Below are positions 2,597-56,504 of a stretch of DNA of 64,000 bases, in pieces; the first letter of the stretch is position 1; each line of letters begins with the position of its first letter. The position numbers and the translations under genes are program-made. Below the pieces are notes generated by a model. It did no database searches and had not been told where the DNA came from. It saw only the letters and a list, made by a program, of their open reading frames with translations. Origin of the DNA: Euglena gracilis (lineage: Eukaryota); contig CP154954.1 of NCBI GenBank assembly GCA_039621445.1, positions 10,621,521-10,685,520 of the forward strand, read 5' to 3'.

Positions 2597-2666
2597 TATA
2601 TATAAATATATATAGTTGGAGACTTTAGTTGGAGGCTGCCATATATCCATATATATACATATATGC

Positions 2667-2697
2667 ATGTATGTATGTATGTATGTATGTATGTATG

Positions 2698-2728
<31 letters not shown>

Positions 2729-3015
2729 GTATGTATGTATGTATGTATGTATGTATGTATGTATGTATGTATGTATGTATGTATGTATGTATGTATGTAT
2801 GTATGTATGTATGTATGTATGTATGTATGTATGTATGTATGTATGTATGTATGTATGTATGTATGTATGTATGTATGTATGTATGTATGTATGTATGTAT
2901 GTATGTATGTATGTATGTATGTATGTATGTATGTATGTATGTATGTGTGTGTGTATGTATGTATGTATGTATGTCTGTATGTATGTATGTATGTATGTGT
3001 GTGTACATGTATACT

Positions 3016-3546: not shown

Positions 3547-3604
3547 CTATCGGCCAGCGGGGGGCATCGGCTTCTCCTGCTGCCTCGCGTCTGAATTCTC
3601 TGGT
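3547..3604 (-). CDS. OTU gene exon 14 (PENSDARQQEKPMPPAGR*)
   Basis: CACCCTG CATGC|A acceptor pairs with donor GCC CAGGGTG at 6418; phase consistent; TAG stop. Confidence 0.75.
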
Positions 3605-6600
3605 GCATGCAGGGTGCGGCCTGGGGTGAATGTGTAGTGGGGGTAGGTGGGGAGGGGAACAGGGTTTTTTTTTTGAAGCGCGGGGGGGGGGCGGTCCCCA
3701 CCCCCCCGCCCCCGGGGGGGGGCCCCCCTCTGGGGGGGGGGGGTCCCAGGGGACCCACCCACTTCGGCCGAAAATGGCCAAAATGCTAAAAATAGCATCC
3801 ATTTCTATAAGATGTTTCGTGTTCTGATCCCGCTTTTTTACCAGGAAAACCGGGGGCGCCGAAGGCGCCCCCGGTTTTCCTGGTAAAAAAGCGGGATCAG
3901 AACACGAAACAATTTTGAAACCGTGTTAAGAGACCACGATGTACACCGGTAGTGAAAACCGTGTTCAAGTCCACGTGATTCGCGCAAAAAAAATGCCGAT
4001 TATAATAAACACGTGTACAAAAATGGGGTACCTTGGTACATTGCAATTGTACCGTGTTACAAACACGGTACAATGCAAATGTACTGTGTTTGTAACACGT
4101 GTACATTGTACGGAAAGCGTGTTTACTCTTTTGGTAACACGTGTACATTGTACGGAAAGTGTGTTTACTCCTTTTGGTAACACGTATACACTGCAGGAAA
4201 GCGTGCTTACTTTTTTGGTAACACGTGTACTTTTACGGAAAGCGTGTTTAGACTTTTGGTGACACGTGTGCATTATGCTAAAACGTGTTTCAAAAACGCC
4301 TTCACACCCTTCACAGCCATGATGCGCCTGGCTAACCTCGCTGAGGCCCGCATGCCTGCCCCTCCCACTGTTAAGCAGTTTGTGGAATCCCTCCAAAAGG
4401 TGAAATCTCCATCTGAGGAAGTTGATGCTTTGTTCCCCCCCCCAGATCTGGTCTCGGCAAAAGATTACCGTCGCGACCGCATGGCTGCCCTGAATTGTTT
4501 TACAGAATACATGGGGGTTTGCGCAGCCCATGGGGTACAACACGCGACGTTGGACGACTGTTTTTTGGGGTGGGCCCGCTGGTGCATTGATGCTCGGGTG
4601 TTGTACGTGACACCCGAGCAACAAGTCGCCTGCGTTGCTGCCCGTACGGAGAGAGCTGGAACAGATTTTCGGGTTCGTTCCATGCCTGTTTTGTCTTTCC
4701 GTACATACCTCAATGCCCTTGTTTTTTTGTATAAAGTGTCAGACCGTGACGGACCTCCAATTGTGGCCTCCTCTGCTTCTCAATTCCCCAAATTCCTTGC
4801 TTTCTTTGCCCCTATGGTGACGAAAACGTGCTTCCCCACCACCTCCGACGTAGCTCGGTCTGTTCCTTGTGTGAGTTGTGCGGACACCTACCATTTTGTG
4901 TGTGCTGACCTGTGCCGAGCTCCCAAACGTCCCTGGAAATGCCCGGGATGTTTGTGATGCCTTTCATGATGTGCTATTGTTCTTGGCCAACAGGCCACGA
5001 GGTGTTTGCAGCATGCGTCTGCATACCCCCCCCCCAAATACACCAACTTCCCGCCGCCGTGTTGCTTCTTGCTTCCGTTGAGCAGTATGTCCATCGTTTC
5101 ATGCATTCTAGTTATGCTGTAACCCTACAGAATATTTTTCATTTATAACACGGAACAATGCAAATGTACCGTGTTTGTAACACGTGTACATTGTACGGAA
5201 AGTGTGTTTACTCTTTTTGGTAACACGTGTACACTGCAGGAAAGCGTGTTTACTCTTTTGGTAACACGTGTACATTGTACGGAAAGCGTGTTTACACTTT
5301 TTGGTAACACATGTACATTGTACGGAAAGCGTGTTACAAACACGTTTTCCACCGCTGAACACGTGGACTGAACACGGTTTTCACGGCCGGTGTACATCGT
5401 AGACTTAACACGGTTTCAAAAAATTCGGCGCCTGCGGCGCCGAAAAAAGATATACCCACCAGCCCCTGCCCCCCCCCCCGGGGGGGAGGGGGTCCAAAAG
5501 ACCCACCCATCCTACCCCCCCCCAGGGGAGGGGATCCAAGACTAAAAAAAAACCACCAGAGGGGAAGCAGGCGTAACGGTGGTTGGGTCGGTCTGATTGG
5601 GGGATGTCGACTCCGTCGAAAGCAGAGTTTCGAGTTCCATGACAAAAAAAAACTCAAAGGGTGAGGGTGGAAGGATTCAGGATTCGGGATTGGTGGATGA
5701 CAAGAAACAGAAAACATTATATATGTAACATATGCATATTATATATAATATAATATATAATATAATACAATAAATTAAACATAATACATATATATAATTT
5801 TATGTATAATAATATATTTTATTCATCTTTTTTATTTATAATATATATGATATAATATATGTATAAATACCCGCCCCCCCCCCAGGCAATTGTCGCGCGA
5901 CAAATCGGGCAGCACGGACGGGGGTGACAATTTCCCGGGGTGACAATTTGGCCGGCACAGAGGGGGGTGACCATTGCCTGGGGGCGTCAATTGCTCGGGG
6001 GCGTCAATTGCCCACCCATGTAAGCCACATTTTAAACCAAATGGCCAAAAACACCATCTGAAACACAAGTGAACGCAGGGAAAATGCAGCTACGATCGCG
6101 ATATTGTGCAGAGCGTTTGGTATGCAAAAATTCCAGCACATTGCAGCGAAATAGAAGATCACAGAACAATGCTGCAAATGGGGGGTGACAAATTGGGCAG
6201 CACAGAGGGGGGGTGACAATTTCCCAGGGTGACAAATTGGCCGGCACAGCCAGGGGTGACAATTGCCCGGGGGTCAATTGCCTGGGGGTGGGGGGGAGTA
6301 TGGAACTTGCATGGTTGAGCAATGAGAGGAGCATGAGTAAAAGAAGTGAGTTGAGTCGATGGGCCTTTCCCACCCCTGCACGAGGCTGTCGTTCGGCCCG
6401 GCCCGGCCCACCCTGGGCGTCTGCGACCGCCGCCGGGAGAACGGCGACTTGCCCGCGCTGCGCTCGCGGCTCGCGGACCGGAACGGGGACGTGGCGCGGC
6501 GCCACGCCCCCTTCAGCCGCGCGCCGGCGGACGACGGCGTGGTGGACGTGGCCAGGCAAAGACAGTCATCCCCAGTTATTGGTCTCCGGTGGGTTCCGGT

Positions 6601-9600
6601 GGGTTGCCTTGGGGGGGGGCAGGGTTGTATGGGAATCTCCGAGGGGGGGACCCCCCCCCTTCCGAAACTAGGGGAGGGGGGTGGGAGACCCCCCCCCTCC
6701 TACCTCCAGTTTTCGGTCGCCGAAATTTCGGCCGCTTTTGGGGGTCAAAAGGTCAATTTTTCTGAAATTTCTCAAAAATGGTGGTGAATCAAAAGAAATG
6801 TCCAAAACCTAAATTGAAGCCCTTAAAATGCCAGATCTAACAGTATTTTGATTTCCTGGCAACTCCCCACCTGTCCCGATTTATGGTCATTTTTGGCCAT
6901 TTTGCCAAAATTTCACGTTGAGCCCCCAAAAAAGTCCTAAAATACAGTCCCAGCGCGAAGCGCCAGAAAATTTTTTTGCCCCCCCAGAGGAAGGGGAGGG
7001 GGGTGGGGGAGGACCCCCTTCCGAAACTAGGGGGGGGGGGACCCCCCTACCACCTTACCCCCCAAGGGGGGGGTGACCAGGGTGTGACGTAGAGCTGAGC
7101 TCTTTGGGAGACCACCCCGGCCCGGCCCGCGAAAAACGCTCATTTTCGGCTCAAAAACAGTTTTTCTGGGTCAGGGAGGCCAAAAAACACGGTTTTGGGG
7201 CCAAAAATTTTTTTCGATTTTTTTCGACTTTTTTGACCGGTTTTGACCCAAAGTCATGGGTTGGTGGCCCAAAACGGGGCGCCGGCGGGTCGAAAAACGC
7301 TCAATTTTGGCTTGAAAACACTTTTTTCGGGTCCAGGAGGTCAAAAATCATGGTTTTGGGGAAAAAAAATTTTTTCGAATTTTTTCGACTTTTTGACCCA
7401 AAAATGGCCAAGTCCACCGGCCAGCGGGGCGGGCCCCAGCCACGGGGGGGCATGGGGGGGGGGGGGGTCCAGGTCGGAAAAAATTTTTTCGCTCAAAAAA
7501 CACTTTTTTTGATGTTCTGAAGTGAAAAAAAGTGCTTTTGAGCGAAAAAATTTTTTCGAAATTTTGGGTCCCGACCTGCCACCCGACCCCCCCTAGCCCA
7601 GCCGCCCTGACGGCGCCCGGTGGGGTCCCCAAATACCCAAAACTGGCCCAAAATCGCACAACCAGGCCCCGGGAACCCCAAAAAACGGTCAACCCCCCCC
7701 CCTAAACCTAATGATTGACCCCCTGGTTTGGGTCCCAACTCCTCGTCTAGCCCGAGATACGGCCAATTTACGGTTTCGGGCCCCGAAATGGCCAGAACTG
7801 GCCAAACTGGCCCAAAACCCCCAAAACGGCCATATCTCGGGCTAGGCGAGGAGTTGTCCCAAACCGCGCATACCGATCGATAGGGCGTTCCAAGGTCGTC
7901 AAATGAGGTCGCCATCACTTTTCCTCAACTCCGCAGCGTTTTCGAGATATTTTGAATTTTTCGATTTTTGGACCCCAGCCCGGCCGCCCTCGAACCCCCG
8001 CCGGGGTCCCCGAATACCCAAAACTGGCCCAAAATCGCACAACCAGACCCCGGGAACCCCAAAAAACGGTCAAAACCCCCCCCTAAACCTAATGATTGAC
8101 CCCCTGGTTTGGGCTCCAACTCCCCGTCTAGCCCGAGATACGGGCAAATTACGGTTTCGGGCCCCGAACGGGCCCGAAATGGCCAAAACTGCCAAACCTG
8201 CCCCAAACCCCCAAAACGGCCGTATCTCGGGCTAGGCGGGGAGTCGGCCCAAACCGCGCATACCGATCGATCGGGCGTCCCAAAGTTGAGGAATGACGTC
8301 CTCTTTACTTTTTCGTAACTCCGCGGCGTTTTCGAGATATTTAAAATTTTTAATTTTTTTGACCCAAAAATAAACTGAAAATTTCCCAGAAAAAAAAAAA
8401 CGGTAGACAACTTTTTTGCTCGGGCCATATCTCCAGACTGGCGGGGAGTTGCGGGTAACCGAAGGGCTCTGGAGGTACTAGGGACCGTCCCTAACCTATA
8501 GGCCATTAACTTTGGGGGCCACGAAATCCAGTCACATCGACGGGGGGGGGGGGGGGGGTGGGGGGGGGGGGGGGGGGGGGGGGGGGCGGGGGGGTCCGAC
8601 CCCCCCTCCGGCCCCGGTGGTAAGCTAAAGAGATAAGAGCTCAGCGACCCCCCCCTACCACCTACCTCATGTCTGCGGAGCTCCCCATACAACCCTGGGG
8701 GGGGGACTGGGAAAAAAACATCCAACAAGGCGATCTGACCGGATACTCTTTTTGCATCATGCAGTTGGTGCACAGCATAACCACATGCATGGCCCCCGGG
8801 GTCAGGATCTTGGCCTCCTTTTTGTCCCACATGAGGCACCTTTTGGCTCTGTTTAATGGCCCAGCCAGGTGCTCAAAATATTTTGCCCCATCGCCACGTG
8901 GGATACCACATGATGTGATGTACTCACCCCAATGGCCACCAAATATTGGTCATCGCGAATCATATCCTGCAACCTGTTTAAACCTGAAGGAAAGGGTCTT
9001 TTGAATAATCATAAAAAGGCAACCTGTTGTTCTGCATCCCTCTTTGCAGCATGAGACTATGGGGCCATAAATCCAGCAGAAAAATATGTGCATGGGAAAA
9101 AATCTCCAGTGGGATCCGGTGGGATCCGGTGGCTGTCCTTGCCTGGACGTGGCAGGGGGCTCCGAGGGGGGCTCGGAGGCGGGCCGGTGGGGCACAGCCA
9201 TCCTCCCCCGGAAATTGTTGCCGTGCCAGCCGGAGACCCTTACAGCTAGGCGGGGCCAGTTGCACATACTTGGAAAGTGGATTTCCTGGACAGATGCCCA
9301 CCCTCCCCTGCGTGACGTGACGGGGACAGGGGTGTGTGAATGTGGACATGTGGATACGCGGAAAATATGCAATTGATGCCATAATTGGCGATTTTCCGGA
9401 CCCCCTCTTGCAAAGTCATTTCGGCCATCTTGGGCCCATTTAAAGGGCCATTTCGGGCTGTTATCGGTCATTTTCCACCATTTTTTTGACCATTTTCGAA
9501 CACTTGGCCATCTTCGGGCCATTTGGGGGCCATTTTAGTCAGGACCATTTTTGGGGCCATTTTTTGGCAAAAGCCATTCATAGGGTCATTTGGGGCTGAA

Positions 9601-12600
9601 AATTACCCAAAATTGCTAAAAAAAAACGGCTTACAATTGCCCAAAACGACCAAAATTAAAAATCCCAAACGTATGGGAATATCTTAAAATAGTCAAAAAT
9701 AAGCTGAGCTATTCAGGAATGGACAAATTTGCAACTGAAAACCTGTGAAAACCTCAAATTATGCACCAATCAGATATATGTGCCCTTTGGTGGAAAAAAA
9801 AATGCACAAAACAAATCCACCAAAACAAAAACACTCTTAGTTCATTATTTGGACACCGACTTTTATTAGACTGCGGGGTAAATATTTTGTAGATTACAAC
9901 AAAATTTTCAAAACCAAACAAGAATGCCCATAAAAGCAGTTCCCCTTTTCCTTTGCATTTTGGGGCTTTTTGCTGTCGTTTGGGCAGCCCGGGTTGTTCC
10001 TGGGGGGGGCATGTGGGGGGTATGCAAAACAGTGCTACAAATACAGTGCTAACAAGTCTACGCCCTGATACGCCCCCCCCCCCAGACCACCAGCCCGGGC
10101 GGGCGGCGGCTGCCAGGCTACGATGCGGGCCACGATGGACTCGTACTTCGCTACGACCTCCTGGAAGCTGCGGGCAGCCGTTTGGTGGCGTGCACCGCCA
10201 GGGAAACCACTTGACGAGGTGAGCACACCAATCCCACTACCAAAAGCGTCCCATCCCATCCAGAGCAGGTGGTTTGAAGGGGAATACTCATGGGGGGGGA
10301 TGCAACAATGCCCCTCAAAATGCGCTACGCAAAAAAATGAAAATTAAAAAATTTGAATGCAAGGAAAAAAAACGGCGACGGTGCAAGTGGCATGTAACTT
10401 ACCCAATCCCATTGCATTCTGAATGACACATTGTCGTGGACGGAAGGGGTAATTTGGGAACTGTGAGAAAGCATTTAGAAAGCGACGGGAAAGCAGCGCT
10501 CAAGAGTGATGCACAAACAAGGGACAGCAAAGAGTGCAAAATGGCTGTGTGGAGACGTCCAGAAGGTAGAATTTGGCACCGGGGGTGGTGACGCCGGACT
10601 TGATCCCGACTTCGATGGAATACGGCATAGGGGGGAGGGGAGGCCAGATACTCTCAGATACACGCAAACGGACATGCCATACATCGCCAGCTGCTGTAAT
10701 ATTGAGAGGATGAGTGAGTATGCGTGCAGCTGTGTGAAAAATTCTGTGTGTTTGGACTGTGTCTCTGCCCAATCTCTCGGCCAGATCCCATCCCAGAAGG
10801 TATCCAGCCGTGGCAGAGTTTTTCCTTCCCTGCAATTCCCTGATTTTGGGGCTTGTTTCTCAGCCCCTCTGCCCCATGGGAGGGTGTAGCCGAGCCAACT
10901 TGTAACCGTCTGCACCACACAGTCAGCAGTTGAGGACATGAACAAAGGTCCCTGTCCTGTCTCTGCTCCTGTCTGCTCCTGTGTTACACCTGACGATGCT
11001 GCCCTTGAGTCAAAGACCAGAACACAAACCACACACCGACACACCGACCGACAACACACTCCTCACAGGCAGAAGCACACTTCCGAGCCCCCCACAGAAC
11101 AGAGGGACATGGGCGTAAAAAAAAAAACACAACCACAGAGGGCTAAGCTGATCACTAAAACCCCATGTCATCATTTTCATATGTCCCAAGTCCAGCCACA
11201 GAGGTGGACTGTTCTTTGCTTTTGCTGCACAACTGGTGTACCCCCCCCTTGTCCTTGACACGCCAAAGTACAGGCAAAATGCGGTTGACACAGGGGGTGT
11301 GTCATGGACATGCCATGTCATGTGCACTGTACCATAATAAATTGGCATTTTGGGTCGGGAAAAGTGCGGTTGACACGGGGGGGGGAGGGGGTGCCATGGA
11401 CCAGCCATCTCAAGGACAAGGGGGGGGGGGTACCTTTCATATTAAAAAAAAAAAACAATTACGATGTTGGTCAGGTTTGTTTAGCGGTTCTGGTGCCAGC
11501 AGGACCAGAAGCGGGCCACCCCTCGCCTGGACCCGCCAGGCCGGGTCGTTGCCATGCTGCTGGAGGAGGTCGTCCAGGATGCTGTACAGGCAGGCGTCGT
11601 CGTACAGCTCCACGCGGAGGTTCTGCTTCAGCTGCGAGAGGGGAGGGGGGGGTCGACCTCGTCAGGAAACACCCCAAAAATGACACCCGTGCCTTGTTGT
11701 TGGATCCGATGCTGGAAACCACCTGGGTGGAGGTCGTTCGTTTTACCCCCAAATAGCAAAGAAGACCCATTGCTGGCCCCATTTTTTTCTTGACCGAACC
11801 CGCCACAAATTATTTTGGGCTCCCCAAAAAACGCGAGAAAGACAGTTTGCACCATAATCCAATTGGGTCAGATTAAGGTATAACACAACACTTTTCTTAA
11901 AATCCCAAAAAAATCAGATTTTTCCTCATTTTCATGTTCATAATTGGGGTTGGGGGAAAATGTGTAGGCAATTGTTAGGCTATTTGGAGGGGGGGGTTGG
12001 ATGAGACCTGTTATGTCTGTGAGGATGCGACTATGGAGGTATGAGTTGGTGAGTGAGTGAATGAGTGAGTGCGCACACTCACCTGTGTGCTTGTGTATGC
12101 TTAAGGATCTGTGTGTTTGTGCGATTTTGGAGGTGTATTCAATGCCCACCCTATGGGTCCAGCTCAGAGGTTGGCTCGCTGGGAAATGGAGAAATAAGTC
12201 CCCAGCAGTTAGGGGCCAAAAAACATCGTTTCGGGCAAAAAAAAATTTCGATTTTTTTCGACTTTTTTGACCTGTTTTGACCCAAAGTCTATGGCCCAAA
12301 ACGGGGCGCCGGGGGGGTCGAAAAACGCTCATTTTCGGCTCGAAAACAGGTTTTCCAGGTCTGGGAGGCCAAAAAAAAACATGGTTCCGCAAAAAAAAAT
12401 CGATTTTTCTCAACTTCTTTTGACCCGAAAATGGCCCAAAACGGCTAAGTCAAATTAGGCCAAAACTGTACAAAATGGCCAAAATCGGCCGAAAAAAAAT
12501 TGCCGCAAACTCGGGCAGGGCAGGGAGTTGCGAGGAAATGAAAATACTGTTTGATGGGGCATTTTAAGGGCTTCAATTTAGGTCTCCAGACATTTCCTTT

Positions 12601-15600
12601 GATTCCCCCTGAACAAGGGTTGAACTGGGTAGGAAACCCCCGGAACTGCAAATAGTCCCCAATGTTAAAATTTTCTGCAAAGGTTGTTTGTTTGAAACTG
12701 GAAAGCCCATTTTCGACCCATTTCTGTCCACAAGGCACTGGAAGCAGCAGACAGGAATATTAATTTGTCCACGGGGGTGGAGGGAACAGGGCTAAAACCA
12801 CACACACCACACGCACACACACACACACACACACACAATCCATAAATCATAACCAGGGAGAAAAGGGTGAACGTGGGGACCAGGCGCAATATGGAACAAA
12901 AAAAAATTAACAATCTGTATAAAAAAAATCTTCAAAATAAAACACATTATCGGAGCCATCCCCTAGTTGCATCAGAGTTTGCAGACCTGAGGCAGGGCAG
13001 TTAAGGGACCTGAGGCAGGGCATACCACAGCTTGTGGGGTCTCCACTTGCAAAATGCGGACGAAGGGGGACGGGATCCGAAACTTGTGCGAGCCCAGCGC
13101 AACGACGGAGTCATAATGATTGAGATCAGTGGCAAATATGCTTACATTGAGGTGGACGACGTTATTGAAAAGCGGTGTTATCATCTTGGCATATGCACGA
13201 GCAGTTGGGTTCACAAGATTCACGGGAAGCGCTGCAAAAAAAAGCAGCTGATTGTGAGGACATCTTTACCGATGCAAAAATATGTCATCAAAGACAAAAT
13301 ATTTTGCAGTGGACAGCTTGAGGTACATCACATTTTTTTTAAATATAAATAGTTTTTAGTTTAAAAGAAAACGTATCTTTGCACTGTTGTCCTTTCAGGA
13401 TTTTTGGTTTCCTGTTCAAAGAATTTTCCTGGCTACTGTTCAAGTTAGTAATTATTATATATTTTTTCATGGAATTATGGAGTACCCCTAAATCCAGCTA
13501 CCGGAAATATCTGTCCTCCCAACTGGGGGGGGGGGGTTGACATAGGGTTCTGACCAAAAAGGTGTCCTCCAAACGAGGGTCGGTTGTTCGACAAGGTCCA
13601 AAAAAAAAAAGTCCGCAGACTGGGGGTACGCAGGACCACCCCCAAAAGGTCAATTTTTTCAGCATTTGCCAAACCTTTTGGCGTCTTTGATTTTTCTCCC
13701 AAAAAAATACTAAAACTTCATTTTTGGCCAATTTTGGGGGGCAGAATTTTTCAGCTCGGCGCTTTGCTCCATGCCAAAAAAATCCGGCCAAAACATCCGA
13801 AAATCCGTTTCTGTCCGGGGTGGTCGTTAGAAGAAGTGCGTCGTTGGACGTAGGGGGGGGATACCTTGATAACAAAAATTTATAATGCATGGCACACCAG
13901 TCCGAACTTTGCTGTGATTCACGAGTTCTCTCTCGCACATGCCAACCGTGAACAAGTGAACTTGGAAGCTCTCAGCGGCGATTTCCTCGCGCGCCAGCGG
14001 AGTTGCCACCGGCTTTGCCCGACGTACGCAATCAGCAGGGCGTTGCCCGCCGGGGGTCCCACGGAGGGGGACGGGTCCATGTGGAACGAGCTGTTGTGCA
14101 TGAACGGGGCCAGCCCCACTGCCAAACCCGCACCAATGACCCCGACACATCAGCCTGGTGGACCCCGAGGGCCAAACCCTGGAGGGGGCGTATCGAGAAT
14201 TAGACCTCAAGACGGGACGTCCGGGGCAAGTCTGGGGGTCCCGCCAAGTTCACTCTACACAGAAATTCGGGGGGGAAAGGTTCTGTACAAAAATTGTATC
14301 GCAGACCGTGGTCGATGTGATGCGAGAGGAGGGGATGGTCGTGGCATTCCCTCCCTGGGGCTGCCATGACTCCGCGCAGTTCAGGGGGGCGGGGGCAACC
14401 GTGCAGAGATGCACAGAGTAGAGAGTGAACCAAAACCTCTGATGTGCCAGGCTCGGATTGTGAGGCCCTTCATAGAAAAGTTTAAATTCCCAACGGGACA
14501 TCTCTAGCACCGTTTTTCTTTTGAGCTTCCTGCACTTTTCCATGCTAGGTGTTTTGCTGAGCGGTGGGCTCGTACACGAATGGCATGAAGAATGTCTGCC
14601 GGAAACAGGATCAGCAGTGAGCAGGGTGTCGCCCTACAGCAAGCCCTTCAGGCAATCAATTATGAGAAACTTGGTCAGCAAGCTTTCACGTTGTGTCGCA
14701 TCGCTGTATCCACAGCTGTCACTCTCCACTGTAAATCACAGGCTTTCCCAAAAAAAATGGTCACCTGACCCCCCCCCCTCGGATTCATTGTCCACAAAGT
14801 TTGCCTTCTCAGGCAGTCCCTTCTTTCGAAAAGCGTGAGCAGAAGGTGGCTGGGGGGGGGGGGGGGTTAAGACAGAAATACCTGGGGCTGGGCAGACAAG
14901 CACGCCGCTGAAACTCATCGCAGAAGACGATGACCTCCGGCAGGCAGTTTTGGACGAAACCCGGGGAGAATTTTGACACTTGACACACCTGTGAGTGCAG
15001 GCCAAGCAATAACTTCCTCTGCCGACCCCCTCCCGGCAACGCATCGGACAAAACACATGAAACGCTGGAGCGAAACTCGACGTATCCAGATTCTTTACAC
15101 GCACATTCTCTACACTCTACACATTCTCTACACATATTCCGCCGGCGTCATCCATCCATCATCCGAGGTAATCCATCCAGACCGTTCAATAATTCCATCC
15201 CACCATAAAACATCAAAATATGGTTTTTCTTGACACTGAAATTTTTCGGCCCTGAACCGGCCATTGGCTGGCCCTGGCTATAGGGCAGTCCGCAAACAAG
15301 ACCCCTGAACTGACCACAAAGCTGCCTGGGCTCCGGCAGGCCGCCCCACGCAACCTGCCCCGTCCCGAATTCCTTCACCTGGGGGCGGAGCCAGGGGGAG
15401 GGGGAACTCTGGGTCTGTGGAAAATGCCCTGCCGAGGGAGAGCATACGAGGTTATTCCGTTGGTGGGATGAACTCAGCCTGTCTCAGCAAACGTTTGCCA
15501 GCATCCTAAAGCAGTATGTACACACGAACCATGTTTTTTAAAAAATGTCTGTCAATAATAAAGTTTGTTAAGTTGTAAAGTTTGAGCATGCAAACACGTG

Positions 15601-17385
15601 TAAAAAGATAGCACACATCCAAAAATCTCTTGAAGAACAACATGCAAAAAGAGATGCAGTATGTGAATCATCCATGCCACGAACACCCGTACATCAAACA
15701 TCCTCGGATGGGAATCCACAGTCTTTTGGGTTCCACAGGTTGTTATCACCGACCCCGGGTGCAGGTACTCATTGAAGCTGCCGAAATCCATGATGACTTC
15801 CGCTTCGAAGAGGTGTCGGTACGATTCTTGGGTCCGCATCCGGTGGAATATCCGTCAAGGCAGTGCCTCCCGGTGGGAAGGGTGTTGTGGCGGTGATGAT
15901 AACAAGGATGGATCACAAAAAGCCTTTCATCAAGCCAGACCAAGGGATTGAAAAGGCCAAAGAAATGGAAAAAAACCTCGTACCGAGGCAAACCAGATAT
16001 AAAAAGTTAAAGAGGTGTAATATGTTGCTTTAGTATAATAAAAAAAACCATGACCGAAAAAAAATTCAATAATATTTTGAAAAAAATGCAAATGCAAATG
16101 CAAATGCAAATGCAAATGCAAATGCAAACCTTCAAAAAATCTGACAATGCAAATTTGTTCGCTGGAAAATCCTCACAAACGAGAAAAACATTGCTGAAAA
16201 CATCCATTATCGCAAATATCTCCCAGAACTGTTCCCACAAGGGAGGTTCACCCTTTCCCATGCACTAAAGGAAACAGACGTCTTCAAAACCTCATTCCTG
16301 TGTGCTTTTCTGGGCTCCGCACTTCAGCCCCGCATGTCCAACGAAGCAACCAGGCGGGGGGTGGGGGCGGGGCAGGCAGCGGTCGCTTCACCTCCAGGGG
16401 GCTGATGGCAACATTGGCCTGGATCATAGGTCCACTTAAACACCCGCCCAAATATAAAAGCCCCCCGGGCTTTATATTTGGGCAGGATTTCAAAACCCTC
16501 GGGGGGGGGGGGCTTTATATTTAAGGGGAGAAATCAAACCTGTCTGGGTAGCCTTCAGATGCAGTCAAATATCAAATTATACCCCAAAATTTGGTTGTGC
16601 ACTTTCTGATTTACCCCAAAAATGTGCAATGTTTGTCTGAAAAATGGAGAAATTCTACTGGAAAACTGTTATATACCCAAAAAAATTTCCTGCTTTTTCC
16701 TGAATGGGCTTTTCATCAAGGGAGCTTTATATTTGGGTGGCAAAAACAAACCGACAGGCGGGAATAGAGGGGGCAGGGGGATGGGATATAAATGGGGGGG
16801 GGGGGGGGGGGGGGTTCCAAACCGGCGAGAGTGGGGTGCCAGGGGCAGGCATTTTCCCCCTGGCCCAAACCCACCCACCCTCTCTCGAAAGGGGGGGAGG
16901 AAAGTGAATCTCTGGGCTGGATCTCCAGCTGGTGGCTGAGGGCGCCGTAGAGGCAGTTGCCGTCCCCAGGGATGGGGTAGCGCATCAGCCCGATCATCTG
17001 CAGCTGCAGGCCGGGCCGGGTCCGCACGCCCTCCCCCCAATGCCGAAATCTGCCAACCTGTACCTCCTGTGTGGTGTCCCGTGCTGTCCTGTCTTGGTGG
17101 TGATCTGGTGACGGGGGAACCAACAAAAGGGTCGTGCCGGTCCTCGAGTGTGGGAGAGGCTACATTGGTGTCCAAAAACAAATCACAGGGGGGAATACGT
17201 GCGGGCACCAAGGCAAGTAAACAATGCATGAATGCGTGCGTATGCACCATGATTATGAGCACACACCCACACCCAACACTCAGGCAAACAGACACCCACC
17301 CACCCAACACACACACACACACACACACCCAACACACACACACACACACCCACCCAACACACACACACACACACCCACCCAACAC

Positions 17386-27497: not shown

Positions 27498-30400
27498 GGC
27501 CTCAGGCTCTGCCAGCAGTTCAGCAAGCGAACGAAATCCTGCTTGCCGTGTTTATTATGGTTTGCAAGAGTCAACGTCAACTCCCCGGCCAAAAACGACA
27601 AATCAACTGCACAGGCCCCCCAGCATCAAAACAGTGGCATGGCCAAAATGACCAAATGCACCCATTCTACGCTATCGGTGAAGAGATTTAGGGCGTTTTG
27701 GGGCATTGGACAGAAGGTTATCAAATGAAAATTGCTGCAACAGAGCCAAAGAGAGAGAGGATAAAAAATTGAGAGACGAGAAAAAAAATCACTTCCAGGG
27801 AGCGAAATGACCTGGTGTGGCTGGAGGGATGGGATACAGCATCCGAGGACGAGCCTGAGCAGCCCTTCCAGCCGTTGAGGAGGCTGCGGAATGGGGACAG
27901 AGAGACGCGGGCAGGCAGGCGCTATGGCATGGCACTGTGCTCCTTTTGCTCTTGGTGGCGGTTGGCTGGTTGGTGGAAACCAGCTATCTGCGCTGTAGGA
28001 AGGAATGGCGGGTTGTTTGCTGCGCTTGAGTGCAGCGCTGGTAAAAACAAATTTTCCTTTGGGGGTTTCGGGATGGGGTTACAAAAAGAGTAGAGTCAGG
28101 CTGCTTTTTCTTCTGTTCACCAACCCTGGGGGGAGGGAGGAACTTTGTGCTATTTGGTGCCTGCCCATAGCAGGCACCCCCCCCCCAGTGCCTGCTAAAC
28201 CCCCCAAATAATACCCCCCCCCCCAATAATACCCCCCAAACAGAGGGGGGGGTATTCAACCAACCCAATTTTCCCTTGAAAATGGCCATTTTTGGACTCC
28301 CGACGCCGAAAGCACACTTCGCTGTTGGGGGGGGGGGGGGCTAGCCCAGCATCGAAAAAAGGAGCAAAAGAAAGCACAAAAAGACGCACATTTTTCGGGG
28401 AAAAAAATGTGCAAAAATAGTCAAATTTGAGAGAAAATGTGCAAAAATGACGAAAATGCAAAATTTGCCCAAACACCTGCAAAAAAAGGCACCAAATTTA
28501 CAATAATTGTGTGGAATTATGCGGTTTTTGAAAAAAAATTCAAAAAATTGCAAAAATTTACAAAAAATGGTTAAAAAATGCGGGAAAAAACAGTGAAACC
28601 CACAAAAAAAAAATACACCAAAAAGCAAAAAATGTGCTGAAAAAAAAGCGAAAAAAAAACGCAAAAATGCGAAACGCATTCCCCCCCTTGCACCGCCCAG
28701 GCCTGAAACCTGACCCCAGGCCTGCCTGAGGTGTGTTCTCTAAAAAGACTAAAAAAAAGAAGATGCTTAACAATTAAAAAAAAAACAGGGATAAGAAGAA
28801 GATAAGAAGTAGGTGGGCAAAGGGGCCAGCAATTTTGGGGCAGCGAAGGAGAGGAGCGACACAGTGGCAGCGCAAGGAGGGGTGACAATTGCTGGGGCGA
28901 CATAGCAATCATCTCGAGTATTTTCTTGTTTCATTTTTTTTGGATCATTACATTCTTGGGGTTTTTTTGGTAATGGGTCTGGTCAAAGGTTAACCAACGT
29001 TGAAAACAACAATATCTCAAAACTCCTTTTTTCGCACTGCTGTTCCTCATGAACAGCATGAGGAGGTGCCAAAACGGCTTGCACAAGACAGCAAGAGGGA
29101 GGTACCCATTGCCCGAGGGGGGGGGGGGGGGCAACTATTGTGCGGACAATAGGCTAAGGAAGTTTTTGGATCTTCTTCTGAAATTGCAATACTGGTTGCT
29201 GGTGTTTTCATCGACACAAACTGACCTGGGATCGCCAGCCAGCTCCGACAGATACTTCCCCTCCAGTTTATGGATCTGCTCCTCCAGCAGCAAGAGTTGT
29301 GCCCGATGTCGTTGGCCTTCTGGGTCACCAGCAAGCAGCTGATATGGTCAAGTGATTCCTCATGCACTTCTATGGATGCACTCCTGACCATTGAACCCCC
29401 CACACACAGACCCCCCAAATAAAAATGCTACAACAATAAAGCCCAGGGGGGCCACCGGCAGGCACCTATGGTCACTTCCCATTTTGGTGCTCTGGTCGGC
29501 CCTGGTCGGCCCTGGTCGGCCCTGGTCGGCCCTGGTCGGCCCTGGTCGGCCCTGGTCGGCAAATAGTCGGCCATAGGTGGGGGTATCTGTCACAGAAAAA
29601 GTGTGAAGGGATGCAATGATTTTCTGAATTGTCTCGCCAAGATCAAAAGGAAATGCTCCATAAGGCCTCCATTGGCTCCCCAAAAGCAACCAAAATGACC
29701 TAAAATGGCTTGAAATACCCAAAAATTGCCCAAAAACGCCAACAAAATCCACAAAAGATTGTGAAAAATGACCCAAAATTACCAAAAGGGCGCAAAATGG
29801 CCACAATGCCATAAAAAATGCTCAGATTGACCCAAATTAGCCCAATATTTGCCAAATCAGTGATAAATAGCCCCCAAATTAGCAAAAACTGGTCCATAAT
29901 GGCCAAAATGGGTGTAAAACTGGAGATTTGTGAGAAAATTATCCATGGAAGGGTACTGTGCACTTTCCTCCACTGAAGGACTCGCGACTCGCGACTTTGT
30001 GTATTAAATTCGCGGCTCGTTGGATGCCAATCCTGGCATCCAACAATCAGGGGTGCACAGTATGCGCACCCCTACAAGCATCCTCGGATTCACATGCCCC
30101 ACAAGCATCCACGGATGCACATGATCATGCACATGCCTACAACCGCGACCACAGTCGCCCGTTTATCCCACAACTTAAGATTCCCCCCATAACCTCCCTC
30201 TCCCACTGGAGCATCCACTCCAGGGAGTCACTCAGGGAGGGCCAGACGAGCCAGGGAGGAACACAGCACCAATGTGGAGGCTGTACCAGGGGTTTTTTTA
30301 AGACCGGGGGGGAGGGGGGGGTCCCCCCCACCCACCCACCCCCTGGGGGGGGCCCCCGGGGGGGGGTCCGGGGGTACCCACAAAAAAATGGCCGAAAAAT

Positions 30401-30673
30401 CGCGAAAAGTGCTAAAAATAGAATTTTTTCGGCGCCTGCGGCGCCGAAAAGTATATCCCACCCCCCTCCGGGGGGGGACCCCCCCCCCGGGGGGGGGGGC
30501 TCGGCCGGACCCACCCACCCTACCCCCCCCTCCCCACCCCGGGGGTCCAAACTTAAAAAATCCCTGGGCTGTACGCAGGTGTGCAACAGGGGCACGATAC
30601 CTTCGGCTCCAGGGGAGTCACACACCTCCCGGAGGGGGACGGAGAGGTCAGAGGCAGAGGCACGGGCCGACAT
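27423..30673 (-). CDS. EAF6: Eaf6/MEAF6-like histone acetyltransferase complex (NuA4) subunit; 3' exons unresolved (candidates ~27316-27352 and ~26627-26669)
   Basis: Exons 30673-30626, 29338-29226, 27883-27861 and 27497-27423 give MSARASASDLSVPLRELL...QLLLLEEQIHKLEGKYLSELAGDPSLLNGWKGYIQLTKQ...KRQRNDEDE. This matches the Eaf6 pattern LExQIxxxEGxYL...GWxxY. The DRLFS motif was not found. Confidence 0.72.
27861..27883 (-). CDS. EAF6: Eaf6-like 23-nt exon 3 (LLNGWKG)
   Basis: AG acceptor with pyrimidine tract; nonconventional donor. Confidence 0.75.
29226..29338 (-). CDS. EAF6: Eaf6-like exon 2
   Basis: LEEQIHKLEGKYL; GTCAGT donor; 5' part of the frame is uncertain. Confidence 0.75.
29493..29560. 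repeat. Decamer tandem repeat (GGTCGGCCCT)n
   Basis: Also at 30965-31018 and 31052-31108. Confidence 0.92.
30287..30566. mobile_element. hAT-like MITE (CAGGG...CCCTG) with perfect 8-bp TSD GGCTGTAC
   Basis: TSD at 30279-30286 and 30567-30574. Confidence 0.9.
30626..30673 (-). CDS. EAF6: Eaf6-like exon 1 (MSARASASDLSVPLRE)
   Basis: CCCTCCCCTGCAG acceptor 20 nt upstream of the ATG; GTGTGT donor. Confidence 0.65.
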
Positions 30674-31235
30674 GAAGGGCAGGCTGGAGTGGTCTGCAGG
30701 GGAGGGAGGGACGAGACAACAGAGGTGTACCCAGCAGTATGGGCCCAAATATGAACCCCACTTCAGCCATCCAAAATCCCCGCATCCAAAAAATCCCAAA
30801 AAAATCCCCGCATCGCCCTGCATCCCCCTGCATCGCCCTGCATCGCCGAAGGTGCTTGCCCAGCATCGCCCTGCATCGCCCAGCATCATCAGAGGTGCTT
30901 GTTCCAGAGGGAAAGCTGCCGAATTCCTTCATCCATTCCCCTTCGGTCGGCCAACCACATGCAAGTCGGCCCTGGTCGGCCCTGGTCGGCCCTGGTCGGC
31001 CCTGGTCGGCCCTGGTCGGAACCCCCACCTACGGGGGTCCTGATAACCATAGTCGGCCCTGGTCGGCCATGGTCGGCCCTGGTCGGCCCTGGTCGGCCCT
31101 GGTCGGCCGTAGGTGCCTGGCCACCGGCAACGCTTGGCCGCGATAAGCCATTTCTGCCCGCCTGAAAATATCCCCAAATTTGTCTGATTTCTCAAATTCA
31201 GTACCAAAAAAATCTCGTACAATTTGTGAGTAAAC

Positions 31236-49313: not shown

Positions 49314-49697
49314 CAGGCTTTTGCTTAAGGCTTTTTCTTGCCCGGGGGGTACTGGCTGGACACTGGAAAAAATGGACTAGCTAGACCCCCCTCCGTCGTT
49401 GGGGGGTCTGGGGGTCCCCCCAACTGTAAAAAAAATTCCCTTCGGCGCTGTGCGCCGAGGTGAAAATGAGGTTTTTAATGTTTTTTGGATGATTTTGTTC
49501 CAAAAATTCCCAAAAATGGCCAAAAACGGGCATTTTTGGCAATTTTCCGGCGCTTCGCACCGGTCACTGGAAAAAAAGTTCCACTAGTTAGCGCTGCCAG
49601 CAGACAGGTCTGCTAGAAATCCCACCAGCCAAATCAGGACTAGCTGCAGTCCAGCCCCCCCCCGGGGGGGTACTGCAATCCCTGAAGCAAAAGCCTG
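49314..49697. mobile_element. hAT-like MITE (CAGGCTTTTGCTT TIR) with perfect 8-bp TSD GTGTGTAC
   Basis: TSD at 49306-49313 and 49698-49705. Confidence 0.92.
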
Positions 49698-51026: not shown

Positions 51027-53145
51027 CAAGGTTGACGGCTTGTTTTTTTTTTGAAACAAAAAAAGCATGTTTCTTTAATAAAAAAAACGTCATGGAGGGT
51101 TTGGGGTAAATTTTTTTGCAATGTTTTTTTGGAAAAAAGTTCATTTTTTATCTCTGCAGCATTCATTTTTTGTCTTTTTTTGGGGTTGAAACCGTGTATT
51201 GGGGCTCTGGCTTCACGCCCGAACCGGCGTTCTGGACGCCGGTTTGGCGCAGAAATTTCTGCGCCGAACCGGTGTCCAGGAAGCCGGATCGGCGCAGAAA
51301 TTTCTGCGCCGAACCGGTGTCCAGAACGCCGGTTCGGGCGGGAAAACGGCGTCCTGGGGACCGAAAATGAAAAGTGCCAAAAAGTGTCCAAAATGGTTTG
51401 TAGACATGAGGCAATCATATCTGAGCACTTTTTGGGGGGTATTTGGCCAGAAATTGGGGTATTTTGTGCAACAACAATTTCCATTTGGCCAAATCTGGGG
51501 ATTTTCTGAAATAGAATACCATGCAGCAGGCCTGAAATCTAAGGCCATCTAAAACCCTAGAGAAGGGTTATCGATCAAGGGGCAACATGGCAGGTGAACA
51601 GTGTATTTTGGAATTTGCGAAAAGGGTCCAAAAATCGTAATTCTGAAAAACCCAAGGGGTCCAGCTAAAATTTCCTAACCATAATTCTGAAAAACCCAGG
51701 GGAGGGTCCAACCAATTTTGAAAACACCCAGGGGGACCAAAATTTCCCAACTGTAATTAACATTTCCCAACAATTTTGAAAAATTCCCGGGGGGGGGGGT
51801 CCAGCCAAAATTTCCCAACCGTACTTCTGAAAAACCCTAGGGGGGGCTCCAGCCAAAAAAAAATTTTCAACCGTGTTTGTGAAGAAATCCAGCCAAAATT
51901 TCTGAACCGGAATTCTGAAAAAAAGGGGGATCAAATCCCAACCATAATTCTGGAAGAAAAAAAAACCAGCGGGGTCCAACCGAAAATTCGGCATTGCAAA
52001 TCTGAAAAAATCTGGGGGGGGTCCAGCCAAAATTTCACAACCGAGATTCTGAAAAAACCTAGGGGTGGTCCAACCAAAATTTTTTTCCAAATCGTAATTC
52101 TGAAAAAAAACCTTTCGATTGATGGGTAACCTGGCATCAGACAGATGAAAACTTCAATCGGCCGATCGACATGGCCATGAGCCCAAAGGATCCCAAAAAT
52201 GCCCAAAAATGTTCAGAAACTGGATATTTAGGGCGAAATTGGCCTTTATTCCTTGAACGCCGGTTTGGGCGTGAAGCCAGAGCCCCTAATCCACGGTTTC
52301 AACAACTGTGTCCAGAACGCCGGTTCGGGCGTGAAGCCGTGTTCCAGAACGCCGGTTCGGACTGCCGCCCGAACCGGCGTTCTGGAACACGGCTTCACGC
52401 CCGAACCGGCGTTCTGGACACAGTTTTCGTATCAGAAAGCGTGATTTTTTGCACCAGAAAACACAGATTTGGAAGCACTTTCACACATAAAAAAAACTTT
52501 AGAGGGGGTGTTCCCCCCTGTGACCCCCCCCCCGACCCGACCTGAGACCCTTTTCGGCCCATTTTTTTCTGAAAAATAACTTGGCTAGTGATGCCTAGTT
52601 TGACAAAATATTCAGGTAGATTAATAATTTTGAGGCATAAATTTTGCAAAATTTGGAGTGGTGATGCCAAATTTGGGGTCAAAATACCCCCCCTTATTGT
52701 CCCACCGACCTCCCCCCGGGAGGCCCGACCGGACAATATGGGGGGGGGGGGACAATATGGGGGTACCAAAGGAATTTCATTGGCCGAGCCAAAAAAACCC
52801 CCCGTCGGCCGGGGCCGAGGGACAATATGGGGGGGGGGACAATATGGGGGGGGGGTACTAATTTTAAGTTTGGGGATTCCTAATTTGGAGCCTAAAAAGG
52901 ATTTTCCCCAAAAAAAATTCGTTTTCGTTGATTCCTAATTTGGCCACCGAAAATGTGATGTTCCCCGTGACCCCCCCCCCCGTGACCCGAACCACCCCCG
53001 AAAAATTTTCCTCAAAAATGGCGATTTCGCAAGGAAAAAGGTCAATTTTTGCTTTTTCAAAAAAAACATGTTTTTTGTGTTTTTCCCCACAAAATCATGT
53101 TTTTTTGTTGTTTTTTTAAAAAAAACAAAAAAAACGTCAACCCTG
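51027..53145. mobile_element. 2.1-kb composite hAT-like insertion (CAAGGTTGACG...CGTCAACCCTG), perfect 8-bp TSD ACGGCTGG
   Basis: TSD at 51019-51026 and 53146-53153. Removing it restores colinearity with copy 1. Confidence 0.88.
52687..52856. mobile_element. Small MITE (CCCCATATTGTCCC...GGACAATATGGGG)
   Basis: Very similar copies at ~61392-61563 and ~62215-62386. Confidence 0.85.
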
Positions 53146-53522
53146 ACGGCTGGCATGCGTTGCTGTACGAACGGAGAGGGCTGGCACCAATTTTCGGGTG
53201 CATTCCATGCCAATCTCCACTTTCCGTACGTACCTGAACCCCCTTGTGTTTTTGCACAAGGTGTCAGATTGCAACAGTTCACCAATCGTGGCCTCCTCCG
53301 TCTCTCAGTTCTCCAAGTTCACAGCCTTCTTTGCCCCTCTGGCAGCGAAGGCTTTGGATGAGAAGCTGCTAGATGGAAGGGGCATCCATCCAACAACGTT
53401 CTCACCAAGGAGGAATTGATTACGGTGGTGGCCGCGGTACAGGAGAAAAGCATTTTGGATGTCCAACGACGCACTGTGCCTTGGTTTTACCATTGCGTTT
53501 CGTGTATCTCATCCAACGGCAC

Positions 53523-53989
53523 CAGGGTTGGATGGGAAGCCTTGAGGGGGGGGGGGTCGGACCCCCCCCCCCGACACGGAGGGGGGGTCGGACCCCCCCC
53601 CTCCTACCTCGAAACTGAGGGGGGGCCGAAAAATTTCGATTCCATGGACGGGCAAAGGGCCGGAAATCGGGTCGAAATTGGTTAAAAAAACCCAAATCCA
53701 AAAATGCTCATTTTTTGAAATTTTTTGAATATTTTTTGGGGGGAAAACGCCAACACATCAAAAAATGGGCATTATGTCCAAAAGTGAGCAAAAGGGGTGT
53801 TTTTTGCTCATTTTCCTGCGCACAGCGCCGGAAGAAAATTTTCTGCAATTTTTGGCACCTGGGGTGGGGGTCCGGACTCCCCCTCCCAACATCTGGGGGG
53901 GGGGGTCCAGACCCCCCCCCCCCCCCACCTTACCCCCCTAGTGGGGGGGGGGGGGGTTGGGACCCCCCTACCACCTACCTCAATAGCTG
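53523..53989. mobile_element. CAG...CTG insertion with perfect 8-bp TSD AACGGCAC
   Basis: TSD at 53515-53522 and 53990-53997; related sequence at ~24360-24790. Confidence 0.85.
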
Positions 53990-55292
53990 AACGGCACTTA
54001 TCATTTTGTGTGCGCTGACCTCCGCCGGGCTCCCAAACGTCCCTGGAGATGCCTGGGATGTTTGTGATGCGGTGTGTCCGTAGTGTGTCCTGGCCGTCGA
54101 GCCACGAGGTGTTTGCAATATGTTTGCATATATCCTCCCCTATTCCTCCCCCACTGTCGTTGGCGACCCTTGGAGACACTCAACAATCATCTGGTATGAT
54201 GATCTTTCTGTCCGGTTCCCTTTGGGTAGTGAACACAGTTTTTTTGGCAGATAAATGTGTTCAGTCCACGTGTGCAATGTCAATAAATGCGTTCAGATCA
54301 CGATTTTTTTGTGCAGGAAACCGTGTTCAGTCCACGTTTACAGTGTCAATAAACGTGTTCAGATCACGATTTTTTGTGCAATAAAACGTGTTCAGTCCAC
54401 GTGTGCAGTGTCAACAAACGTGTTCAGTCCACGTTTATCGTCGCTGCACACGTGGACTAAACACAGTTTTTCACGACGCTGTACATCGTGGACTGAACAC
54501 AATTTCAAACGCCCTTTTGCATAGCTCCAAAGGTTTGAAAAACTGCTCAAAGAAGGTTCGCAATGAGATCCAAAATGGACAGAGCTGGGTTCAAGAGTTG
54601 TGACCATTTTTGGTAAATTTTCGGGCAGTTTTTCAATCATTTCAGGCCGTTTTTTGAGATAGTCGACCATTTTTGGATATCTTACAGTTTGGACTATTTT
54701 GGGTTATGGTTGGGCCATTCTTCGAACAATTTTTTCAAACCATGTCAGTCCATTTCGGGTCATTTTTGTCATTCGCCACAACTCATTTTTTTCAATTTGT
54801 ACAGGTTTGATGATTCAAAACACAGTTCTCACAACATTAAAAGAAGAATTTTGTTCCGAAACACAAATTATCAGGGTGTCTAGAGGAGGATGTTTGAGGG
54901 TGGCAAAAAAATAACTTGTGCGGACACCTAAATTCTGGCGCTTAAATTTCCATCTCGCTTCTCGGCCACTCACTACCTCGTTGTGGGCACCACAGTGGTG
55001 AAATGCAATGAACATTTTCTTGTTTCATCCGTTGGCAAGACACCAACTCCGTTCTGAGTCCATGTGCCTTACAAGCTTTTAAAATTTGTGTCTCAGGGTG
55101 AAGTGTTTGCTACAAAAAACTTTAAGCAAGTGGTTTTTTATTTCCAAAAACTTGCCCCCCCCCCCCAGCTCACCCCTTTGACTCCTAAAAAAATGGGAAA
55201 TTTTCTACAACTGATTGTGATCAACAAAATTATCAAATTGGCATTCAACGTGTTTCCCAAAAAAATGCCCCACCACCAAAATGTTTCCAGAC

Positions 55293-55626
55293 CATTGTTG
55301 GGGCGACGGCAGTACAGCTGGGGTTTTTTTGGGGACCCCCCCTCCCCCCCCCCTGAACAGTTGGGATTTTCGGGACCCCCCCCCTGGTGCTGCCCCCCCC
55401 CCGAGACAGATGAAAATTTTGGCACCAAAAATGGCCTTTTTAGACCAAAAAAAGGCCTTAAAATTTTTTTCCGGCGCCTTCGTGGTTTTTGGCCGATTTT
55501 TGAGGGGGGGTTGGCAGTACAGTTGGGACCCCAGGACCCCGCCACCGGTGTTGAGACAGTACAGCAAAAAAGGTGCCAAAAATGCAAAAAAAACCTGACT
55601 CGGGACCCCCCCCTGCCAACGCTCCG
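55293..55626. mobile_element. Dispersed repeat with GGCAGTACAG motifs
   Basis: Copies at ~58918-59260 (nested) and ~62641-62810. Confidence 0.75.
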
Positions 55627-56504
55627 TTGTACTTGCTTGGGGTGGTTCGGGTCACGGGGGTCACGGGGGGGGGGGGGTCACGTGGTGGGGGGATCACGGG
55701 GGGAACACCGCATTTTTGGTGGCCAAATTAGGAATCACCGAGCACAATTTTTTTGGGAAAAATCCATAAATTAGGAATCCCAACACCTAAAATTGGGATT
55801 TTGACACCAAATTAAAAATCACCAACCCCAAATTTGAAAAATTCATGCTTCAAAATTAGGAATCTACCTGAAAATATCATGAAATTAGGCATCACTGGCC
55901 AAATTTCTTCCTGTAAAAATTTGGCTGAAAAGGGTCGTAGGTCGGGTCACGGGGGGTCACGGGGGGGGGGTCATGGGGGGGTAACGGGGAGACACCCCCC
56001 TTTGAAGGGAAAACCTTTGGGAGGGGACATGGTCGTTCAGAGCCATTCCCGCCCCCCGGAGCTTTACGGCCTGGTGGGAACAGGGGGGGTGAAAATCCAA
56101 CGCCCCACAAAAATTGACAAACAGTGGCGTTTTTGACGACGTTTGTTCACATGCAAATTGCCAAAAAGCTTTTCGGCATTTTGTTGCCGGTTATTCGTCC
56201 CGGTTTTTCTGGGGGGGTTATAAGTCAAGGTTGGTGGTTCTGGGGGGGGTCACAATGTGGGGACAGCTCACTATCATAGCACTTTTTTTGAAAGAACTTC
56301 CCCACACTGTTCCCATTGGGCCGCAAAGGGTCCCCGGGGAAAATAGGTCGGGGTGAACATCTTGGAGGGGGGGGGCATGGTATACCTCAAAATGGCCACC
56401 CGTGGAATCCCAAAAACGGCCACTCTGAAGGGGGGACATTTGGGGGGGGGTCAAATTCGGCTTCGGCGCCAAAAGAAAGTGGCCACTTTGAGGAGGGTAC
56501 CCTC

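Follow-up and report, generated by a model that had tools for sequence, protein, structure and literature searches.

A stretch of 64,000 nucleotides of Euglena gracilis DNA (assembly GCA_039621445.1, contig CP154954.1, positions 10,621,521 to 10,685,520 of the forward strand), hereafter the window, carries on its minus strand a gene with the sequence motifs of an OTU cysteine protease, a deubiquitinase. Toward the 3′ end of this gene, the coding sequence is interrupted by a transposon-like element with CAG...CTG ends and a perfect direct repeat on either side. The best explanation of the whole locus, and one that we consider probable, is that a coding exon of the OTU gene was hit by a non-autonomous DNA transposon, which is excised from the transcript as a nonconventional intron of the euglenid type. 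The evidence comes from the ends of the element, from their agreement with the published splicing code, and from RNA mapped across the gene. Positions below are those of the window.

Ends of the element and the flanking direct repeat

On the plus strand, GACGTGGC stands on both sides of the element (6545-6552 and 9146-9153), and sequence comparison finds the two copies identical at 8/8 positions. A TG precedes both copies and extends the full direct repeat to 10 nt, TGGACGTGGC (6543-6552 and 9144-9153). The ends inside this repeat are CAG...CTG and belong to an 18-nt inverted repeat with 15/18 identical positions. The first-pass annotation of this DNA had described a perfect 8-bp target-site duplication (TSD) and a 15/18 terminal inverted repeat (TIR). 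Both descriptions are correct. A search of the window with the left TIR, CAGGCAAAGACAGTCATC, allowing at most three mismatches, returned the two end sites and nothing else, against a chance expectation of 0.03, and two or more such matches occurred in 0/100 shuffles. The direct repeat and the inverted ends are real and go beyond chance.

It might still be argued that these repeats are coincidental, or a by-product of the way in which nonconventional introns are recognized, rather than scars of transposition. Short direct repeats are found at the ends of 84.4% of E. agilis introns, and the 2025 paper that gives this figure set those introns aside (PMC12501133); the flanks of the present element are GC-rich and of low complexity, and a third copy of GGACGTGGC occurs at 6487-6495, within the downstream exon (repeat family D20). 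However, a window-wide scan for elements with CAG...CTG ends, a perfect 8-bp flanking repeat and a terminal complementarity of at least 11/14 yielded five elements, whereas each of 30 block shuffles and the reversed sequence yielded none. Furthermore, a second element nested within the first has CAG...CTG ends and an 8-bp flanking repeat yet makes no contact with any exon, so that splicing cannot explain its repeat. Finally, the flanking repeat is unnecessary for splicing, since artificial introns with arbitrary spacers are spliced (PMC12501133). An origin of the repeats other than transposition is therefore given very little credence here.

Agreement with the euglenid splicing code

Knock-in experiments have defined a code for euglenid nonconventional introns. 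Under this code, a spacer of 3 nt leads to a CAG-type motif, and a CTG-type motif is followed by a spacer of 5-6 nt; the acceptor exon opens with a purine, and about 12 nt behind the two motifs are paired (PMC12501133). The 10-nt repeat at the OTU locus permits 11 equivalent registers, all of which yield the same mRNA. One of these, GTC-CAG...CTG-GCCAC, has all four published features and is taken here as the code register; the other ten are equivalent in their product. Read along the minus strand from 9148 to 6548, the CAG occupies +4..+6 and the complementary CTG -8..-6, with GTC as the 3-nt spacer and GCCAC as the 5-nt spacer, and the acceptor exon begins with G. Behind CAG and CTG, 11/12 positions are paired; 13 consecutive pairs extend from +4/-6, and 16/18 positions are paired when one G-U is included. 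The end-to-end duplex has a free energy of -35.8 kcal/mol, compared with a shuffle mean of -19.2 (standard deviation 3.8), and was reached by 0/1000 shuffles; in a separate duplex test, the minimum of 500 shuffles equalled -35.8 kcal/mol. Within the 10-nt repeat and its neighbours there is no GT-AG or GC-AG register: a GT start is matched by an AC end and a GC start by a TG end.

The two spacers of the code register add up to the length of the duplication (3 + 5 = 8). A cut in this register therefore takes out the transposon together with exactly one copy of the duplication. The splice proposed in the first-pass annotation, with cuts between GCCAC and GTC at both ends, is the published 3-nt/5-nt spacer register (PMC12501133), and it keeps the reading frame that had been claimed for it (PPAT-STTP), a frame inherited from the exon that encodes the OTU Cys box. 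Preservation of the frame is no evidence by itself, because the element plus one repeat measures 2601 nt, or 3 x 867, and would keep the frame on any strand. The same annotation had placed the insertion within coding sequence, and this too stands: on both sides of it lie coding exons of the OTU gene (minus strand), namely the RNA exon 6419-6542 and a putative 30-nt exon described below.

RNA evidence for the intron

Reads and contigs were mapped on 5850-17250 from a raw RNA run (X21), two contig runs that are RNA-like by their behaviour (X15 and X16) and a DNA run (X1). Among the 15 joints listed of 420, six are RNA-only, with 11-14 raw reads each. One of the six is GT-AG, and the other RNA-only joints listed are not GT-AG and have 1-11 letters common to both sides. 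Two RNA contigs (X15 record 9 and X16 record 14; 1241 and 1266 nt) follow the minus strand from the Cys-box exon through eight listed pieces to 6419-6542, and past 6419 they hold another 173 and 218 letters that match the window from 3604 downward.

The contig piece 6419-6542 stops one base before the 10-nt repeat. Joints are reported at their leftmost position, with the shared letters assigned to the right-hand piece, as in 14934>15331, where 11 letters are shared; by this convention, a joint that takes out 2601 nt would appear as 6542>9144. The 179 bases that the contigs contain between 11528 and 6542 were distributed by our own arithmetic on mapping depths (binned depth = contig depth x bases / bin width). 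This rule reproduces eight other bins to within ~0.2 depth units (5 bases, for example, give 1.71). Around the joint 10168>10550 (10169-10549) it assigns 80 and 69 bases in both contig runs and leaves over 30 of the 179. An alternative split of the 179 bases, with 53 + 46 in place of 69 + 30 and a CAG/CTG-type intron between 10116 and 9189, was rejected on the ground that both runs put 69 bases in bin 10041-10421.

The position of the remaining 30 bases was sought through the stem geometry of euglenid introns, in which pairing starts from +4 with -6. Of 3480 positions (10060-6581), only 9173-9144 gives terminal stems to both flanking introns. The stems there comprise 11 and 13 consecutive pairs, whereas the next best placement reaches 5. 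The length of the RNA contig accommodates one repeat copy, not two. Because the contig piece ends at 6542, the depth arithmetic leaves 30 bases and these have a unique placement, we take the intron to consist of the element and a single copy of the repeat, 2601 nt in all, with the joint itself inferred.

A competing possibility is that the element lies within a larger, pre-existing intron, from 6543 to ~10050, that has its splice sites elsewhere, and is thus an ordinary intronic transposon. This would be in keeping with the RNA depth in 9279-10040, which is 0 in X21 and X15 and 0.38 and 0 in X16, and with the fact that no piece at 9144-9173 is among those listed. However, in either run two exons near 10100-10629 explain just 149 contig bases out of 179, the other 30 fit nowhere but 9144-9173, and the contig piece ends exactly at the repeat boundary. 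In bin 8898-9278, moreover, X21 has an excess of first mates of the minus-strand type (1.09 vs 0.39), as it has in exon bins. Joining the exon 6419-6542 straight to ~10050, with the element merely intronic, was rejected on the length arithmetic and the unique 30-nt placement, and the larger intron is accordingly held to be highly improbable.

Two alleles and the points against the transposon-intron explanation

The chief caveat is that two alleles exist at this locus and that the RNA contigs carry the letters of the other one. In exon 6419-6542 the contigs differ from the window at four positions; at 6454, 6484 and 6496 they read T, T and A, whereas the window and X1 read C, C and G. Over this exon X1 has the window letters only, at a depth of 74.2 (~74) compared with ~140 elsewhere. 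The element-bearing allele nevertheless contributes RNA over the exon, because 5/7 reads of the raw RNA run X21 carry the window letter at 6454, the other letter being present in 2/7. Further allele positions were observed at 14083, 15819, 16923 and 16968, where the RNA contigs and some of the raw RNA reads likewise depart from the window letters and the DNA contig depth is ~73-74 compared with ~120-145 elsewhere.

The insertion could therefore be polymorphic, with RNA contigs that stem from an element-free allele and a window allele that is misspliced, null or truncated. The visible allelic differences and the X1 depth at the allele sites are compatible with this scenario, and no junction read with window letters is among the rows listed. 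It sits less well with the element itself, which has each feature sufficient for excision in the knock-in experiments (PMC12501133). It also sits poorly with the window-lettered majority of X21 reads at 6454 combined with 0 reads in the single-copy intron bins 9279-10040, a pattern in which the window exon behaves like mature mRNA. Such a polymorphism is judged unlikely, although less so than the two alternatives above, and the element is probably removed from transcripts of the window's own allele.

Several observations weigh against the transposon-intron explanation. The inverted repeat is mismatched at 3/18 positions. BLAST against the window returned no further copy of the outer element's arms, and the right terminal 24-mer had 0 matches in a metagenome scan. 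No transposase was found in a Pfam scan of 6 ORFs (open reading frames), 5 of which had no match at all; no Pfam family was assigned to the three ORFs within the element or to a fourth, 8953-9534, that extends across its right end. The 15 joints listed of 420 do not include 6542>9144, hence its status as an inferred joint, and the RNA contigs may derive from an allele without the element.

Anatomy of the outer and nested elements

The features of the locus are collected in Table 1. When the nested element and one of its two flanking G8 copies are subtracted from the outer element, 507 bp are left. The nested element is bracketed by GGGGGGGG, that is, eight G on each side (6612-6619 and 8698-8705), which amounts to a target-site duplication of 8 bp in low-complexity sequence. 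The interior of the nested element is built of repeats that have many further copies in the window by BLAST. Inside it, a run of 53 G occurs at 8542-8594, and mapped reads are cut at 8533-8601. In bin 8898-9278, where part of the right arm lies, the summed DNA contig depth is 88,749 compared with ~140 for single-copy sequence, a value that is not a copy count. The nested element may have arrived after the outer one, or the composite may have moved as a unit.

Table 1. Coordinates of the element, the intron and the exons of the OTU gene
Feature	Position	Strand	Remarks
Outer transposon-like element	6553..9145	no strand	2593 bp
Left direct-repeat copy, TGGACGTGGC	6543..6552	no strand	last 8 nt (6545-6552) = target-site duplication; slide range 10
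Right direct-repeat copy	9144..9153	no strand	9146-9153 = 8-bp target-site duplication
Left terminal inverted repeat, CAGGCAAAGACAGTCATC	6553..6570	+	adjoins left repeat copy
Right terminal inverted repeat	9128..9145	-	reverse complement = CAGGCAAGGACAGCCACC, 15/18 vs left
Subterminal 10-bp tandem repeats, CCGGTGGGTT type, left arm	6580..6611	+	repeat family D6
Subterminal 10-bp tandem repeats, CCGGTGGGAT type, right arm	9100..9141	+	family D6, left-arm orientation
Nested element	6620..8697	no strand	2078 bp; CAG...CTG ends; 22-nt inverted repeat (91%)
Intron, nonconventional register GTC + CAG...CTG + GCCAC	6548..9148	-	2601 nt
Exon with OTU Cys box (DGNCLY)	16917..17007	-	RNA contigs
Exon pieces in RNA contigs	15760-15853, 14014-14104, 13026-13120, 11528-11631	-	
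Preceding exon	10100..10168	-	69 nt; joint 10168>10550 and bin depths
Putative upstream micro-exon	9144..9173	-	30 nt including one repeat copy
Downstream exon, low-complexity C-terminal tail of OTU protein	6419..6542	-	124 nt; RNA contigs X15 record 9, X16 record 14

The host gene and its other introns

The host gene, on the minus strand, encodes DGNCLY at ~16964 and NHYDSV in exon 13026-13120, which we take to be the Cys box and the His box of OTU proteins. The Pfam OTU model, applied to a single-exon ORF, gave a sub-threshold match to its first 16 positions (E=0.056, 14.4 bits vs a cut-off of 23.3). The RNA contigs lead to 13 exons, and the reading frame of the assembled exons is uninterrupted between the Cys box and a stop codon within the exon at 3604, the His-box exon included. 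A search for homologues of the translated exon 6419-6540 among longer proteins returned 52 candidates with 0 at E <= 0.01; therefore, no database protein could show the junction.

Several exons are very small: 16382-16418 (37 nt), 14893-14934 (42), 15331-15379 (49) and the putative 9144-9173 (30 nt). They are separated by nonconventional introns of 380-2601 nt. Within the 381-nt intron 10169-10549, a low-depth RNA contig (X15 record 11, 10303-10446) was found at a depth of 3.5 compared with 130 for the mRNA contig, which suggests some intron retention or unprocessed RNA.

The OTU gene has 12 introns, 11 of them nonconventional and 1 GT-AG. The CD'G/CH'G motif with 3/5 spacers is present in 8/11 of the nonconventional introns, and a purine opens the acceptor exon in 10/11. 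When the putative duplication 8-mers are compared in the code register, 7, 3, 4, 6, 2, 2, 2, 3, 4, 8 and 5 of 8 positions are identical (mean 4.18); for 110 mismatched 8-mer pairings the mean is 2.6, with 4/110 at 6 or more. In this sample of one gene, the identities look like a decay series in which the element-derived intron would be the youngest. The introns 16419-16916 and 14935-15330 (minus strand) have flanking 8-mers alike at 7/8 and 6/8 positions; the latter begins with CAGGCAG, and its junctions share 11 letters. The next OTU intron, 3605-6418 (minus strand, 2814 nt), also fits the code, with GCC-CAG...CTG-CATGC and putative duplication 8-mers alike at 5/8. On its opposite strand lies a 258-codon ORF (4181-4957) with a terminal Cys-rich motif, bracketed by 42-bp tandem arrays at 4092-4290 and 5177-5335. 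This ORF has no Pfam match, and an Atlas look-up of ORF 4322-4954 gave no usable match.

Other elements and repeats in the window

An element at 29459-31119 is built like the one in the OTU intron. It has CAGGCA-type ends, 10-bp subterminal tandem repeats (CTGGTCGGCC) whose orientation is the same on its two sides, and a nested CAG...CTG element of its own at 30287-30566. Perfect 8-bp repeats flank the two (GCCACCGG; GGCTGTAC). Two more elements have CAGG ends: 49314-49697, of 384 bp, with a perfect 8-bp repeat (GTGTGTAC), and 52613-55870, of 3258 bp, with a flanking repeat alike at 7/8 (AAAATATT/C) and 34/40 first terminal bases alike. A TATG microsatellite of 341 bp occupies 2662-3002.

Proposed mechanism and its wider meaning

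In the mechanism proposed here, a non-autonomous DNA transposon would have entered a coding exon for the C-terminal tail of the minus-strand OTU-protease gene, with duplication of 8 bp of the target. The original element would have measured ~507 bp, with an imperfect inverted repeat of 18 bp at its CAGG... termini and with subterminal repeats of 10 bp. Pairing of its CAG...CTG ends in the pre-mRNA would have made it a ready-made euglenid nonconventional intron. Nonconventional excision would then cut 3 nt before CAG and 5 nt after CTG and remove the element with 8 nt, one copy of the duplication, so that the original coding sequence would be restored. A second element of the same build (CAG...CTG ends, 8-bp duplication) inside the outer one may have enlarged the intron to 2601 nt.

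The locus presents the hypothesized intermediate in one piece: a code-obeying intron that retains a perfect 8-bp duplication, extended ends, subterminal repeats and a nested sister element. A broader reading can be offered tentatively, as one whose truth seems somewhat less probable than its failure. Most euglenid nonconventional introns, which make up ~70% of all introns in E. agilis, may be insertion scars of a single class of DNA transposon (CAG...CTG ends, 8-bp duplication) whose members are still moving. The 3 + 5 = 8 register would be tuned to remove the element and one duplication copy, each exonic insertion would be born a perfect intron, and the "slidable" introns, left out of account in genome-wide studies, would be those that retain the duplication; the machinery that excises the introns may descend from the transposon's own or have evolved together with it. 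The rule that the two spacers sum to the duplication can be checked on any annotated euglenid genome, and it would turn "slidable" introns from a nuisance into key evidence. The locus bears on how euglenids gained their large load of non-spliceosomal introns, the origin of which is still called unclear (PMC12501133).

Comparison with known systems

Judged from the 8-bp duplication alone, the superfamily of the OTU element would be hAT-like, and other superfamilies with 8-bp duplications are possible. hAT elements have an 8-bp target duplication, short inverted ends, short subterminal repeats and the terminal motif YARNG. The OTU element resembles non-autonomous hAT transposons, of which maize Ds is an example, in its 8-bp duplication, its short ends beginning with CAG, its short subterminal repeats and its absence of coding capacity. 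Against the YARNG motif, the outer element (CAGGC) agrees at 4/5 positions, the fifth base being C rather than G, whereas the nested element (CAGGG) agrees at 5/5.

With euglenid nonconventional introns, the OTU intron shares CAG at +4..+6, CTG at -8..-6, the 3/5-nt spacers, the purine of the acceptor exon and the pairing behind CAG and CTG (PMC12501133). Like them, it also lacks a GT-AG register and is "slidable" owing to a direct repeat at its junctions (PMC12501133, PMC3935182, PMC11282704). It differs from them in its perfect 8-bp (10-bp) repeat, 18-bp inverted repeat, subterminal repeats and nested sister element; with such extended ends, a perfect repeat and a nested element, the transposon is therefore still recognizable. 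An origin of these introns from elements like MITEs (miniature inverted-repeat transposable elements) was proposed in 2013 (Milanowski et al., PMC3935182), and a 2024 review describes TIRs at +4..+6 / -8..-6 together with "TSD-like" junction repeats (PMC11282704). In the main-text passages of this literature that the search covered, these introns are given no duplication length, are linked neither to hAT nor to any transposon family by name, and are illustrated by no worked case in which the duplication is intact; Fig. 1B of PMC12501133, on sliding distances, may bear on the matter.

Introners, known from Micromonas, dinoflagellates and others, are similar in that they arise when a DNA transposon that has inverted ends and duplicates its target turns into an intron on insertion, the duplication allowing the cut sites to restore the reading frame (PMC11282704). 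They differ in their spliceosomal, GT-AG-type cuts and in their many near-identical copies in unrelated genes (PMC11282704), whereas the OTU intron has no canonical register. The first-pass annotation had regarded the locus as the most direct evidence for the introner model. Its transposon-derived intron is supported, but a strict introner is spliceosomal, and the OTU intron, lacking a GT-AG register, belongs to the nonconventional class. That a transposon can act as an intron has a precedent in maize Ds (Giroux et al. 1994, cited in PMC3935182). The OTU intron is thus a clean new example of the published transposon-origin hypothesis rather than a new kind of intron.

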